DNA of 64,000 nt. Source: Patescibacteria group bacterium (lineage in GTDB: Bacteria > Patescibacteriota > Patescibacteriia > Magasanikbacterales > UBA922). The stretch covers positions 20,370-84,369 of the forward strand of contig JAHJIX010000020.1 of the NCBI GenBank assembly GCA_018823045.1. Direction: 5' to 3'. Of this stretch, positions 4,474 through 25,070 are shown piece by piece. The notes beneath the pieces are model-generated. The model saw only the letters and a program-made list of their open reading frames with translations, was not told where the DNA came from and did not search any database. How positions within the stretch are numbered: the first letter of the stretch is position 1; each line of letters opens with the position of its first letter. A program made the position numbers and the translations under genes.

Positions 4474-4974
4474 CTATTGCAATATTAATTGATCTTTTTC
4501 CAAGACTTCCTTAAACATTTTTCTTAATTCTTCTTTTTGTTTTTTATCTTGAAAAGAATGAAACGGAATCATATGAGCCTGTTTTTTATCTATAAATAAT
4601 AAAAAAGCATGTTTTGTTTCTCTCACTTTTTTAATAAAAGACCACTTAATTGTAGAATCAAAATAATCATTAGATATTCTAACACCTTCTTTATTTAATT
4701 CATAATTTTTATAAAAAAAACGATCCTTTTCTTTTTTATATAAAAAAGTTATTTTTAATACAATTAATATGGGCACCACAATAAAACTTGCAAAAGGAAG
4801 ATATAATGCCCATATAATCTGAGAAAAACTTTCTCCTTGAGTAAATCCCCATAACGCTAAAAAAAGAAGAAATATAGATAAAACATATATCATCAAAACA
4901 CTTTTTGAATGAGTAAGGTTAAATAAACTATACTTAAAAAGATCTTCTTTGGTTAGCTGTACTTTTAATTTCAT
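4474..4974 (-). CDS. YcxB-like membrane protein (bacterial PH-like domain), putative
   Basis: Two N-terminal TM helices followed by a ~90-aa soluble domain. Architecture and length fit the YcxB/DUF1648 type. Confidence 0.35.
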   Translation of the reverse strand: MKLKVQLTKEDLFKYSLFNLTHSKSVLMIYVLSIFLLFLALWGFTQGESFSQIIWALYLPFASFIVVPILIVLKITFLYKKEKDRFFYKNYELNKEGVRISNDYFDSTIKWSFIKKVRETKHAFLLFIDKKQAHMIPFHSFQDKKQKEELRKMFKEVLEKDQLILQ

Positions 4975-5003
4975 ATCTTTTAATTATTACTCGATTAATT
5001 CAA

Positions 5004-5522
5004 TTATTTTATATCAGAGGATTTAACATAAATTATATCATCAAATTCTTTATTACCGTAAGCACTAGCATTTGTTAAATAACCATCATACGGTCCTATT
5101 TTATTAATAATATTTCCCTCTTTAAAAACAATTTGAAGACCATGTTCTCTCTCCCAATCACACTCACATTCAAATGATAAATATACTTTTTTATCATATT
5201 CTCTCTTCTCTACATTTATTACATTACCAAATTGAATGTGATTTAAAATATTTTCTTTTTCAATATCTATATTTGAATATTCTAGATTATCCTGATAATA
5301 TTCATATAAAGGCTCAATAATAGAATCGAAAATATCATATTTATTTTTCAAAAACACCTTAATAGCATTATCAAAATCTATAACATCAGATTCCTCAAAT
5401 AAATATTCTAAATTAAATATTACCAATTTATCTTTTAAAAATGGAACTGAAATCGGTTTACTTGTACAATCACCACTTAAATCAACCTCACCAATACTTT
5501 CAAAATTTATTTTTTTATTCAT
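5004..5522 (-). CDS. Hypothetical acidic protein (immunity-protein-like character)
   Basis: 172 aa, acidic, no TM or signal peptide. No recognisable catalytic motif. 'ECECDWEREHGL' block. Confidence 0.4.
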   Translation of the reverse strand: MNKKINFESIGEVDLSGDCTSKPISVPFLKDKLVIFNLEYLFEESDVIDFDNAIKVFLKNKYDIFDSIIEPLYEYYQDNLEYSNIDIEKENILNHIQFGNVINVEKREYDKKVYLSFECECDWEREHGLQIVFKEGNIINKIGPYDGYLTNASAYGNKEFDDIIYVKSSDIK

Positions 5523-5557
5523 AATTTACTATATCACAACTCCTTAAACTCTTCGCC

Positions 5558-5588
5558 GGATCCATAGTCCCGATAGGGCTGTGGAGCC
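5558..5588. repeat. 31-nt palindromic repeat, copy 1 (GGATCCATAGTCCCGATAGGGCTGTGGAGCC), with partial inverted half-copy at 5643..5653
   Basis: Near-identical to copies at 7393..7423 and 17406..17436 (reverse orientation). Internal 10-nt inverted arms GGCTCCATAG/CTGTGGAGCC. Shared 5' extension GCCGGNTCC. Confidence 0.75.
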
Positions 5589-5676
5589 AAGGTACTTAAG
5601 CATATACGCTTCACAGCTTCTCCTGCCGAATCGGCGGGTCCAGACTATGGAGCGAGATATTTTGTCTTAATCTCAC

Positions 5677-6069
5677 TTAAATTAAATGACTATATTCAGG
5701 ATAGTTTTCTTTGATTAATTTTTTCCAATTGACTGTTTCGTTTCCGCTACCAAGATGATTTTTATGATATACAAGAAGTACTGCGACTTTTTTACCTTCG
5801 TTATCTACTACGAGTATACACCTATTTCCGGATGATTTCGGTGACACTTTTGTTTTTACGACACTAAACATCGTTTTTATTATCTGTATATCAGTATTAT
5901 CTACAATAACATCAGCAAGATCTGTTTTGAGCAGCATGTCGATACGCTCATACTGCCTAGTAATAGCACGAAGTGTCACATCCCATGCTCCTCGATACTT
6001 TTTTTCAAAACTTTTTATATAATGCCTACGAGCAAATGGTTCAAAGCTGACAAAGTAATTTTCCTCCAT
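5677..6069 (-). CDS. Candidate toxin partner of the Panacea-domain antitoxin (unknown fold)
   Basis: 130 aa ORF 9 nt downstream of, and on the same strand as, the HTH-Panacea gene. No recognisable family. Confidence 0.4.
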   Translation of the reverse strand: MEENYFVSFEPFARRHYIKSFEKKYRGAWDVTLRAITRQYERIDMLLKTDLADVIVDNTDIQIIKTMFSVVKTKVSPKSSGNRCILVVDNEGKKVAVLLVYHKNHLGSGNETVNWKKLIKENYPEYSHLI

Positions 6070-6077
6070 AGGCTCAA

Positions 6078-6797
6078 TTAGTAAATACCAGATGGATCTT
6101 CCTGAGTAATCAGTTCGTATGGGATGACTTCATTATCTCTACACAAAAAGTATGGCATTTGATCATGCGTAAACTTTACAATCTCTGGAGTTCGTTTCTT
6201 TTTCCACTTTCGAGCAATTGCTTTCATTAGTTTCATCTCATCTACAGAAAGACTAAAGTCTTTTTTCTTTTTCGACGCATCTGTTTCGCCAATTAATATG
6301 GAGTCTCTGTTTCTCTTTACGGTAATCAAACCTTCTTCTTCTAGCTCAGTAAGTGCTTGAAAATATGGAATAGGCACAGGACCATATGGAAGTTTTTTAT
6401 ATTTCATCCCGCTCATACTCTCTAAATGTTCGTAATACCATGCAAAATCTGCGAGGTACAATAGTTTTGCCAATTTCGTTTTTGGGATACACCCATCTCG
6501 ATCACTCCCCGCCATACGAATATAGGCCAAAAGCATTTGTTTATATTTTTCATAGTCTGGAATCATACCAGATTCTAAATCTTCAATATCAATACCAAAC
6601 ATATCTGCTAGTTTATGTGCTTCAGAAAGGGTGAGTTCACGTTTCCCCTGCTCAACAGCAAGATAAGAGGTACGAGCAATTTCTAATCGATTTGCTACCT
6701 CTTGTTGAGAAAAGCCACGCTTTTCACGTAACTCTTTGATAAATTGTGCGTATGCTTGACTCATATGTATGTTTGTTAATATACCCTTATATATCAT
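6078..6797 (-). CDS. HTH-XRE + Panacea (DUF4065/SocA-like) domain antitoxin-type protein
   Basis: N-terminal HTH_3 'FSQQEVANRLEIARTSYLAVEQGKRELTLSEAHKLADMFGI'. C-terminal 'TKLAKLLYLADFAWYYEHLESMSGMKYKKLPYGPVPIPYF' matches the DUF4065/Panacea core (KLxKLLYxAD…PxGPV). Confidence 0.6.
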   Translation of the reverse strand: MIYKGILTNIHMSQAYAQFIKELREKRGFSQQEVANRLEIARTSYLAVEQGKRELTLSEAHKLADMFGIDIEDLESGMIPDYEKYKQMLLAYIRMAGSDRDGCIPKTKLAKLLYLADFAWYYEHLESMSGMKYKKLPYGPVPIPYFQALTELEEEGLITVKRNRDSILIGETDASKKKKDFSLSVDEMKLMKAIARKWKKKRTPEIVKFTHDQMPYFLCRDNEVIPYELITQEDPSGIY

Positions 6798-6843
6798 AGT
6801 ATAGCATATTTGTCAATATCTTGACAGAGTAAGTACTAAATAT

Positions 6844-6872
6844 TGACAAATTACTGTGCATAAGTTACAATA
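6844..6872 (+). promoter_or_regulatory. Sigma70-like promoter (TTGACA-17-TACAAT)
   Basis: ttgaca 6844..6849, 17-nt spacer, tacaat 6867..6872. Lies upstream of the small ORF at 6924. A second TTGACA sits 30 nt upstream. Confidence 0.45.
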
Positions 6873-6923
6873 GCTGTGTCAGTATAGTCGAGCTGATTTA
6901 TTCATAGTTAAGTCAAGAAATAT

Positions 6924-7091
6924 ATGGCTACAAATCCTCCAAAAGGACCTGGTAGAGTTGGTGCGGTACGAGATCGCGACCAAGTTTATAACCCACACAA
7001 CAATCGTTGGGTCAAGCGAGACGAAAAAGGACGCTTCATGGACCAGAAGGCTGATAACAAGCCTTTCAAAGGTGTCCGTAAGAACAAATAG
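6924..7091 (+). CDS. Small basic protein (55 aa), hypothetical
   Basis: ATG ORF 'MATNPPKGPGRVGAVRDRDQVYNPHNNRWVKRDEKGRFMDQKADNKPFKGVRKNK'. Below the 60-aa cutoff of the ORF track. Has its own promoter and a downstream terminator. Confidence 0.3.
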   Translation: MATNPPKGPGRVGAVRDRDQVYNPHNNRWVKRDEKGRFMDQKADNKPFKGVRKNK

Positions 7092-7216
7092 AGGTCAATT
7101 GAGCAAATGTGCTGGTTTATCAAGGTCTTGCGGAGACACCAACGTGCTAACAGTGGCAGTCTCGCACGTTTATCTCTCCAACTAGCGTGAGAAAGGCACC
7201 CCTCGCTTACAAAAAA

Positions 7217-7247
7217 ACGCGCTTGTCGTGTTTTTTTGTTTTACAGC
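7217..7247. terminator. Bidirectional intrinsic terminator (A-run/ACGCG-CTTGT-CGTGT/T-run)
   Basis: aaaaaaacgcgcttgtcgtgttttttt. Short GC stem flanked by A7 and T7 tracts. Confidence 0.4.
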
Positions 7248-7392
7248 TTCCCTACAAATACTTTTTCATCATTGAAACTTTCAGATCTACCAAATCTCCT
7301 AGCTTTTTTGTATATATAGTCTCCAATTTTCTAGTTTCAGCAAAAAGTGCGTTAAATTTTGCTACAATGGATTTTTGTTCGACGACCTAGCC

Positions 7393-7423
7393 GGCTCCAT
7401 AGTCCCGCTAGGGCTGTGGAGCC
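7393..7423. repeat. 31-nt palindromic repeat, copy 2 (GGCTCCATAGTCCCGCTAGGGCTGTGGAGCC)
   Basis: 30/31 identical to copy 1. Overlaps the 3' end of ORF 7408..7782. Confidence 0.75.
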
Positions 7424-7782
7424 ACAGTGCTCCCTACATTTTCCCAAAATTTACTAATCTGTTCCCATGATTTTTTTGATTCTTCACCCAAAAAATCATA
7501 AACTTTTTCTGAATCTTTTTCCTTCCAAACATTTTGAATCCCTTCGATAAAACCAATCTTCGCAAGCTCTATGGTCTTTTGATCTATTACAAGATGTAAC
7601 TCTTCGATAAAATTTAATCCTCTTTCTAATTCACCAAAAGATTTTGATTCAAAACATTTTAACAAATACCTTGCAAAATCTCCTGCAACAATATATGGAA
7701 GATCTGAATCATCTTCATCAAAATTAAATTGAGGAAATTTTTTGACAAGTAATTTTACTACATCATCATATTTAATATTCAT
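7408..7782 (-). CDS. Small acidic hypothetical protein downstream of helicase-nuclease
   Basis: 124 aa. Starts 10 nt inside the end of the helicase-nuclease gene. The C-terminal ~8 codons run into the palindromic repeat, so the true stop is uncertain. Confidence 0.4.
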   Translation of the reverse strand: MNIKYDDVVKLLVKKFPQFNFDEDDSDLPYIVAGDFARYLLKCFESKSFGELERGLNFIEELHLVIDQKTIELAKIGFIEGIQNVWKEKDSEKVYDFLGEESKKSWEQISKFWENVGSTVAPQP

Positions 7783-17293: not shown

Positions 17294-17405
17294 GTTTGCA
17301 CGAACATAAGCATGGTAAATTCCATGCCTTCTATATAAGAAGACGCAGAAATGGTGAAAATGTTACACTTACTATAGAAAATCATTACTCAACACTATGG
17401 CTCCA

Positions 17406-17436
17406 CAGCCCTATCGGGACTATGGAGCCAGCAAAA
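17406..17436. repeat. 31-nt palindromic repeat, copy 3 (reverse orientation: GGCTCCACAGCCCTATCGGGACTATGGAGCC)
   Basis: Reverse complement is identical to copy 1 apart from the GGATCC/GGCTCC difference. Lies in the 360-bp intergenic region between the ABC exporter and atpC. Confidence 0.75.
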
Positions 17437-17610
17437 GAAAATGTTAAAGTAACAATATTATTACCACACAAAATCCCTCCCCTATGAGTGGAGGTTAGAT
17501 GGGGTCTTTCGGAGAATATAAAGAATATTTTAGATTAAACAATTTTAATTGCAAAGATGGACCCCCTCTAACTCCCCCTCGTAGGGGGAGAATTTTTATT
17601 AGTAAAAAAA

Positions 17611-25033: not shown

Positions 25034-25070
25034 AAGCGCAGTTCCTCCAGGACTGCGCTTCACTCTTTTT
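25034..25070. terminator. Bidirectional intrinsic terminator (AAGCGCAGT…ACTGCGCTT + T5)
   Basis: 9-bp GC-rich stem between convergent genes, then 'cactcttttt'. Confidence 0.55.

Follow-up and report, generated by a model that had tools for sequence, protein, structure and literature searches.

A Panacea-type toxin–antitoxin pair with a predicted RelE/HigB2-like toxin in a variable region of a Patescibacteria genome

PanAT systems are established toxin–antitoxin (TA) modules of type II, in which Panacea-containing antitoxins (PanA) are paired with toxins (PanT) whose domains include MqsR-like, ParE and PemK types (PMC8832971; PMC10440598). In 343 of the catalogued PanAs the Panacea domain is preceded by an N-terminal helix-turn-helix (HTH) domain (Kurata et al., 2022, PMC8832971; Ernits et al., 2023, PMC10440598), and Dataset S1 of the catalogue lists, in its text-readable part, the untested PanT clusters T14, T28 and T59 with HHpred matches to HigB-2, RelE, YoeB or ParE (Kurata et al., 2022). 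Here, we describe a PanAT locus in a 64-kb stretch of the genome of a Patescibacteria group bacterium (contig JAHJIX010000020.1; this whole stretch is referred to as the window), in which an HTH–Panacea gene, panA, is followed by a gene for a 130-residue protein, panT. With a probability of about 0.7, this pair is a type II PanAT module with a RelE/HigB2-like toxin, which was relocated from a restriction-modification (R-M) operon into a variable hotspot.

Like the described PanAT systems, the window pair is an antitoxin-then-toxin bicistron featuring a small toxin that is sequence-unrelated to other PanTs. It differs from them in that the toxin belongs to a family without a Pfam model and that its loci are mostly labelled Patescibacteria, entries of which are not found in the text-readable part of the PanAT catalogue. 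As this part of the catalogue already contains HigB-2/RelE/YoeB/ParE-like PanT clusters, the system represents a known kind of TA system. An initial annotation of the window had proposed a candidate novel PanT toxin, but the pairing of a Panacea antitoxin with such a toxin is already on record.

The panA–panT pair and its conservation

The domain content of PanA was resolved by Pfam, in which residues 20–74 match HTH_3 (E 1.6e-12, 47.7 bits) and residues 109–215 match SocA_Panacea, PF13274 (E 2e-13, 51.7 bits at a gathering cut-off of 25.7 bits, covering model positions 1–111 of 113). The XRE-type HTH plus Panacea antitoxin proposed in the initial annotation is hence borne out, as are the coordinates it gave for both open reading frames (ORFs; Table 1), while the distance it reported between them has to be corrected: panT indeed lies directly downstream of panA, but 8 nt and not 9 nt after the panA stop codon. 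The window proteins are identical to the NCBI entries KKG22_00880 and KKG22_00875 (annotated as “Patescibacteria group bacterium”). The true start of panA is probably the ATG at 6764, resulting in a protein of 228 residues, since independent gene callers chose this position, PanA homologues are 224–233 residues long and the promoter-like –10 box is located downstream of 6797.

For the 130-residue PanT, no match was obtained in Pfam, NCBIfam or PADLOC, and an uncharacterised PHROG was matched only weakly. A collection of 5.8 billion proteins contained 313 homologues at E ≤ 0.01, all of about 130 residues and none with a Pfam domain, and an exhaustive profile search outlined a compact family that stands by itself and falls into 225 clusters at 50% identity. 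Relatives are encoded by 354 species-representative genomes, most of which are labelled Patescibacteria, and an alignment of 38 sequences from many lineages of the candidate phyla radiation (CPR) showed a mean column identity of 63% with 20 invariant positions.

The association of the two genes is strongly conserved. Among 82 loci, each taken from a different genome, 81 have an HTH–Panacea gene immediately upstream of the panT homologue on the same strand, the lone exception being a locus interrupted by a contig end, so that the proposal of the 130-residue gene as partner of the antitoxin was well founded. Most often the two genes overlap by 11 nt (34 loci), in about 30 other loci they are 2–8 nt apart, and panA and panT appear to be translationally coupled. 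A third conserved TA gene was considered and rejected, as the biggest cluster of neighbours comprised 9 of 81 loci; none of the genes flanking the pair in the window recurs beside it in other genomes. Recurrent neighbours of PanAT loci are of defence type, including HsdS, HsdR, an EcoRI-type methylase, Fic and MazG-like proteins, and a Schlafen-type helicase with Peptidase_S24 also recurs. Among ten loci (L006, L007, L024, L027, L051, L055, L059, L062, L074 and L077), several carry labels other than Patescibacteria, namely Gammaproteobacteria, Verrucomicrobiota, Bacteroidia or Methanosarcinales, probably because these contigs were mislabelled or wrongly binned, and not as a sign of the real host range.

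Conservation extends to the regulatory region. The divergent promoter region of the window harbours a perfect inverted repeat, ATTTGTCAATAT / ATATTGACAAAT, and 47 of 78 loci (60%) have a repeat of this TGTCAA...TTGACA type no more than 120 nt upstream of panA, compared with 0.8% for random windows of the same loci. Across loci it mostly overlaps the –35 box of panA, and the homologous TTGACT/TTGACA ... TATACT arrangement recurs as well; in the window, an alternative promoter (TTGACA-17-TATATA) is located a few bases downstream of the one listed in Table 1. The inverted repeat is expected to serve as operator for the HTH of PanA, which would thereby repress its own operon at the TGTCAA...TTGACA sites over the –35 box.

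Predicted fold and likely chemistry of PanT

A novel toxin fold is not supported for the protein that the initial annotation had put forward as a candidate novel toxin, as structure prediction gave a RelE/ParE fold with HigB2, RelE and YoeB as closest relatives. The AlphaFold2 model of PanT, calculated with the family alignment (pLDDT 91.6, pTM 0.85), comprises β1, α1 and α2, followed by an antiparallel sheet of four strands, and closes with two helices at the C-terminus. A Foldseek comparison with the PDB returned HigB2 of Vibrio cholerae (VcHigB2) as top match (8a0x_D, E 3e-4), together with RelE of Pyrococcus horikoshii (aRelE; 1wmi_A, E 3.9e-4, target-normalised TM-score 0.73, root-mean-square deviation 2.9), and further leading matches were RelE2 of Mycobacterium tuberculosis, YoeB of Staphylococcus aureus and RelE of Escherichia coli. 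The Foldseek probability was 1.00 for HigB2, aRelE and RelE2, and all matches at E < 0.01 are RelE-family mRNases; no significant relative was present in a library of viral structures. On the sequence level, HigB-2 was the sole PDB family matched by the profile of the PanT family, with the E-value improving from 0.68 to 0.016 on broadening. Because the fold matches and Pfam does not, PanT is placed in the RelE/ParE superfamily by its fold and outside every Pfam sequence family. A bridge from the PanT family to the RelE families of Pfam was sought and dismissed, as only 1 of 79 members touches PF06296 (E 0.014) and no consistent match emerged.

In the weak alignment to VcHigB2, residues R83, Y101 and K103 of PanT coincide with Arg64, Tyr82 and Lys84, whose exchange to alanine lowers the activity of HigB2 350-, 1200- and 3000-fold, respectively (PMC5416850). 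These three residues are invariant in one alignment of the PanT family (A1) and at least 90% conserved in a second one (A2), and neither K65 nor E111 varies among 79 diverse members. According to these sequence comparisons, the active site is likely formed on the β-sheet by K65, R83, Y101 and K103, maybe with participation of E111. PanT has in common with VcHigB2 and E. coli RelE the fold, a “G-x-R-x-I ... L-x-x-Y-x-K” motif whose Arg, Tyr and Lys align with the catalytic residues, a basic β2–β3 loop and a C-terminal helix after the sheet. It deviates from them, at an identity of about 15–20%, by its length (130 versus 95–110 residues), the presence of two C-terminal helices, the additional invariant Glu111 and a serine, Ser69, at the position of Arg51. 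Furthermore, the toxin gene comes first in higBA operons, whereas panA precedes panT and encodes an HTH–Panacea protein instead of HigA or RelB.

As both the fold matches and the aligned catalytic residues point to RelE-family mRNases, PanT most likely acts as a RelE/HigB2-type mRNA endonuclease that depends on the ribosome. Free PanT would enter the ribosomal A site and cleave mRNA, and PanA would bind and neutralise it. Several observations weigh against this assignment: the sequence similarity to HigB2 is marginal at E 0.016, PanT has no match at E ≤ 1 to the RelE/ParE families of Pfam (PF06296, PF05973, PF05016, PF06769, PF15738 and others), and the fourth catalytic residue of HigB2, Arg51, corresponds to Ser69 in PanT of the window, a position occupied by Lys or Arg in most members of the family. 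With regard to neutralisation, another case also calls for caution: in the PanA of B. fungorum, the only HTH-containing PanA dissected, HTH–Panacea alone failed to neutralise the MqsR-like toxin.

RelE and ParE share the BECR fold, and the 130-residue protein could instead be a ParE-type toxin, which would poison DNA gyrase and not cleave mRNA at the ribosome. In fact, ParE domains are among the known partners of Panacea antitoxins, and the ParE-type proteins PrpT (7ycs) and PfiT (9w3a) do appear, at lower ranks, in the Foldseek list. However, mRNases account for every Foldseek match at E < 0.01, the profile found no PDB sequence family other than HigB-2, and the invariant or nearly invariant Arg, Tyr and Lys at the positions equivalent to catalytic residues (79 diverse members) would not be expected for ParE-type toxins. 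Owing to the strict conservation of this catalytic-type residue set, a gyrase poison appears very unlikely.

PanT is therefore a new sequence family of predicted RelE-fold toxins, largely confined to Patescibacteria, and neither a new fold nor a new principle, and the window TA pair does not overturn current understanding. Its value lies in the annotation of a widespread CPR protein family, in a cassette history that can be read from a gene relic and in the hotspot described below. On the basis of the structural model, a family without Pfam entry from about 350 species genomes, most of them labelled Patescibacteria, would gain a fold and a mechanism as RelE/HigB2-like toxins acting with HTH–Panacea antitoxins, and the PanAT catalogue now reaches the CPR. 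Ribosomes of the CPR are unusual, and for this reason these toxins could serve as probes of translation in CPR organisms.

Relic of hsdS and the insertion site

The anticodon nuclease PrrC is held in check by an R-M complex, and its gene prrC sits between hsdS and hsdR of EcoprrI. A comparable arrangement is found for panA–panT, which fills the same hsdS–hsdR interval in six related genomes (loci L003, L016, L039, L041, L049 and L081), whose HsdR proteins are 67–71% identical. The closest PanAT locus, L003 of a Magasanikbacteria genome, in which the HsdS and HsdR domains were confirmed by Pfam, shares 75% DNA identity with the window over 5684–6848, comprising toxin, antitoxin and promoter. 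After a jump, the identity resumes at 69% over 7261–7381 (blastn), and in L003 the matching sequence forms the 3′-terminal part of hsdS, which precedes panA. The window hence contains a relic of a type I restriction specificity gene, of which 26 of 42 residues (62%) are identical to residues 365–406 of the L003 HsdS (blastx, E 2e-14) and whose peptide matches HsdS C-termini in exactly the six hsdS–panA–panT–hsdR loci (tblastn). No other hsdS or hsdR sequence is present in the window. In comparison to prrC, the effector in this case is a toxin of RelE-like type that is accompanied by a protein antitoxin of its own, and the R-M genes are gone from the window.

These findings make it probable that the ancestral pair lay within a type I R-M operon, flanked by hsdS and hsdR. 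A fragment consisting of the last 44 hsdS codons, panA and panT would have been inserted downstream of a UvrD-like helicase gene, with its junctions at, or at most 80 nt away from, two copies, in direct orientation, of a 42-nt hairpin repeat specific to this genome, and a mini-gene of the PDC-S38 family would have entered this fragment independently. The lack of any relic that pins down the left junction speaks against this scenario.

The location of some loci next to R-M genes also allows for another view, in which the pair is a PrrC-like defence accessory of type I R-M systems, with the Panacea domain sensing failure of restriction, and is orphaned and possibly inert in the window. Besides the six hsdS–panA–panT–hsdR loci with their closely related HsdR proteins, locus L177 is similarly organised, and a sensory role for Panacea has been proposed by the NetFlax authors. 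Only about 7 of 80 loci, however, reside within R-M operons, while most are found elsewhere, and panA and panT of the window are intact and have kept all family-invariant residues. This makes an R-M accessory unlikely; given that most loci lie outside R-M operons, panA–panT rather works as an autonomous module.

Regarding the site of insertion, 80 metagenome contigs (L085–L164) encoding a UvrD/PDDEXK helicase with 50–58% identity were compared with the window. In about 60 of the 80, the helicase gene is directly followed by a methyltransferase or DciA gene and then by genes for a 130-residue membrane protein, in some cases prolyl-tRNA synthetase, and MreB, whereas in the window 3.3 kb (4474..7782) separate the helicase gene from the methyltransferase/DciA gene. 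In a few of the related genomes this position is taken by other, unrelated genes, whose products were judged by eye to be Nudix-, MazG-, GNAT- and NYN-like, or by larger inserts. As this interval is mostly empty and differs in cargo among the few remaining relatives, it constitutes a variable hotspot downstream of the helicase gene. The comparison supports the idea put forward in the initial annotation that the region was inserted, but on a larger scale: it is the 3.3-kb block that is additional relative to other genomes and not the 1.8 kb between the repeats alone. The block as a whole is absent from about 60 genomes; a strict empty-site allele was not among them, and exact-protein look-ups of both flanking genes gave this strain alone.

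Within this block, the segment between the repeats is itself a composite of toxin, antitoxin, an independently inserted mini-gene and the hsdS relic. The YcxB-like and DUF6985 genes on its left (4474..5522) and the DUF7674 gene on its right (7408..7782) look like separately acquired accessory genes, due to their G + C contents of 0.23–0.28 and the distant relatives of DUF6985, for which no relative above 45% identity was found and the nearest, including Mesorhizobium proteins, show 41–45%. Between the repeats the G + C content amounts to 0.34–0.47, with 0.34–0.37 for the TA genes, compared to 0.35 for the whole window.

Table 1. Position and strand of the features discussed for the panA–panT region and of the third repeat copy (window numbering).
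Feature	Position	Strand	Remarks
Accessory block	4474..7782		3.3 kb: YcxB-like, DUF6985, panT, panA, small ORF, hsdS relic, DUF7674
Hairpin repeat, copy 1	5555..5596	+	left boundary
Left arm of the repeat, partial inverted copy	5640..5653	–	GCTCCATAGTC
panT	5677..6069	–	130-residue toxin, divergent RelE/HigB2-like (BECR fold), putative ribosome-dependent mRNA endonuclease
panA	6078..6797	–	HTH (XRE) + Panacea antitoxin, probable autorepressor; maximal ORF 239 residues
Promoter-like site of panA–panT	6798..6827	–	CTGTCA-18-TATACT
Operator-like inverted repeat	arms 6808-6819 and 6840-6851		ATTTGTCAATAT / ATATTGACAAAT; 12-nt arms, 20-nt spacer, 100% complementary
Promoter-like site of small ORF	6843..6871	+	TTGACA-17-TACAAT, 11/12 positions
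Small ORF	6924..7091	+	55-residue small basic protein, PADLOC candidate defence family PDC-S38
Terminator-like hairpin	7209..7247	+	13-nt arms, 5-nt loop, followed by T-run; end of small-ORF unit
hsdS relic	7252..7386	–	3′ end of type I restriction specificity gene, 44 codons and stop
Hairpin repeat, copy 2	7390..7431	+	right boundary
Hairpin repeat, copy 3	17391..17432	–	between atpC-like and ABC-transporter genes, unrelated to the cassette

Hairpin repeats and the small-ORF unit

The 31-nt palindromic repeats described in the initial annotation are real and contained in a longer direct repeat of 42 nt, the first two copies of which are 88% identical and enclose a bulged 31-nt hairpin; none of 100 shuffles gave a match. 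Although copies are present on both sides of the TA pair, they do not form a boundary specific to this cassette, since exactly three copies occur in the 64-kb window and the third is located elsewhere. The repeat was found neither in 80 other PanAT loci nor in 2 Mb of related sequence outside the organism's own contigs and, consequently, represents a genome-specific, possibly REP-like (repetitive extragenic palindromic) element that does not belong to the TA family. Copy 2 is the point at which two short-read assemblies, independent of each other, break off, which suggests either that the genome holds more copies identical to it or that strains differ at this junction. The respective Logan contigs from two runs end inside copy 2 (7395–7422) from both sides with an overlap of 28 nt (start of L001/L002, end of L083).

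Whether the hairpins took part in the relocation of the pair has to be weighed against coincidence. They could simply be REP-like palindromes or transcript-end hairpins that entered intergenic DNA independently of each other and bracket the cassette by chance, the latter having arrived via unrelated illegitimate recombination, and we regard this as a possibility of some weight, albeit the less probable one. The third copy resides in an unrelated intergenic region in opposite orientation, every copy is found at gene ends, the repeat is missing from the other PanAT loci and related genomes mentioned above, and contig breaks in copy 2 are what a multi-copy repeat would produce in short-read assemblies. 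Moreover, with three copies seen, the chance that two of them lie no more than 1.8 kb apart is about 0.17 by our estimate; such a spacing is only mildly unlikely, which also tells against a role of the repeats. On the other hand, the hsdS relic is cut 3 nt from copy 2, and the DUF7674 ORF runs into this copy, which supplies its last seven codons and stop, so that both flanks change identity exactly there. Copies 1 and 2 are in direct orientation, as expected when a circle with one copy recombines with a chromosomal copy, and the G + C content steps from 0.23–0.28 to 0.34–0.47 at the copies. Insertion of the fragment at or near the hairpins would agree with these latter features.

A far more specific role is conceivable, albeit very doubtful: the 42-nt hairpin could be the recombination site of an undescribed cassette exchange in a Patescibacteria genome, resembling attC without the attC core or a recognisable integrase. 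In such an exchange, circles with one hairpin, here carrying hsdS–panAT, would integrate at chromosomal hairpins, leaving direct copies on both sides, and if this were true, it would be a functional counterpart of integron attC sites. REP palindromes, bacterial interspersed mosaic elements (BIMEs) and attC sites have in common with the repeat that they are short, GC-rich imperfect palindromes, as found here in an AT-rich genome with the copies at gene ends, and in chromosomal integrons, too, two direct copies flank an accessory cassette with a TA pair. Unlike REP/BIME elements and attC sites, the window features three copies and a cassette with its own promoters and a gene relic. An actual attC/integron assignment was rejected, as copies 1 and 2 contain no GTTRRRY and a conserved GTTRRRY / RYYYAAC core is missing, and no gene for an integrase, another recombinase or a RAYT-type protein was recognised among the Pfam-annotated neighbours.

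A branched structure at 5558–5655 can arise from copy 1, the partial inverted copy GCTCCATAGTC and a GC-rich hairpin inside this stretch (CCTGCCG-AAT-CGGCGGG). The surrounding region 5545–5670 folds better than shuffled sequences (z –3.8 on the plus and –2.8 on the minus strand) and has no homologue outside this genome. Rfam searches of the repeat and the left intergenic region yielded no relevant match, whether at the gathering or at permissive thresholds, and ARAGORN found no tRNA there. A second GC-rich hairpin, CTCCCCCTCGTAGGGGGAG (17572–17590), is located in the intergenic region 17470–17600, which holds copy 3, and occurs only once in the window. Such GC-rich hairpins are scarce elsewhere in it, a strict scan having detected a single one at 25035–25059.

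The opposite strand between panA and the hsdS relic carries the promoter/small-ORF/terminator unit proposed in the initial annotation, which proved to be real: it consists of a promoter-like site, an ORF of 55 residues and a hairpin followed by a T-run. The encoded protein matches the PADLOC family PDC-S38 (E 3.1e-26, residues 1–54 to model positions 1–56 of 57) as well as phrog_12550 (E 2e-17) and has 910 homologues, of which the 45 aligned share 72–96% identity with it and stem from Patescibacteria, Gammaproteobacteria and others. Judging from this sequence comparison, the family comprises unusually strongly conserved mini-proteins in restriction/defence neighbourhoods, with a candidate role in defence; PDC-S38 is not mentioned in the literature. 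Elsewhere, homologues follow hsdS or adjoin either HTH and ImmA genes or a Dam-type methylase gene. Of the three closest relatives examined, those in L173 (96%) and L177 (85%) are also divergent from an HTH–Panacea gene, the one in L177 being followed by a 132-residue, toxin-sized ORF, Smr and HsdR, and a homologue is likewise divergent from panA in L023. The structure model of the 55-residue protein is of low confidence (pLDDT 58), and, the terminator hairpin aside, the region downstream of the ORF (7088–7260) shows no additional RNA stability over shuffled sequences (z –1.06).

The distance 6849–7260 amounts to 412 nt in the window, compared with 37 nt for the matching interval of L003. As L003 lacks the unit and is otherwise collinear, the mini-gene represents an insertion of its own, about 410 bp long, that separates the hsdS relic from the panA promoter. 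DNA homology of the window to L173 stops at 7241. The –35 box of the mini-gene (6843–6848) is at the same time the distal half-site of the panA operator, while its –10 box belongs to the inserted unit, as the homology to L003 ends at 6848. The region thereby provides a worked example of accessory-gene gain in a small, streamlined genome, combining a hotspot, a TA pair derived from an R-M operon and a mini-gene that borrows an operator. Compared with the family consensus, the PDC-S38 homologue of L023 (4012–4164) seems to carry a frameshift close to its C-terminus, and could be a pseudogene or reflect an assembly error.

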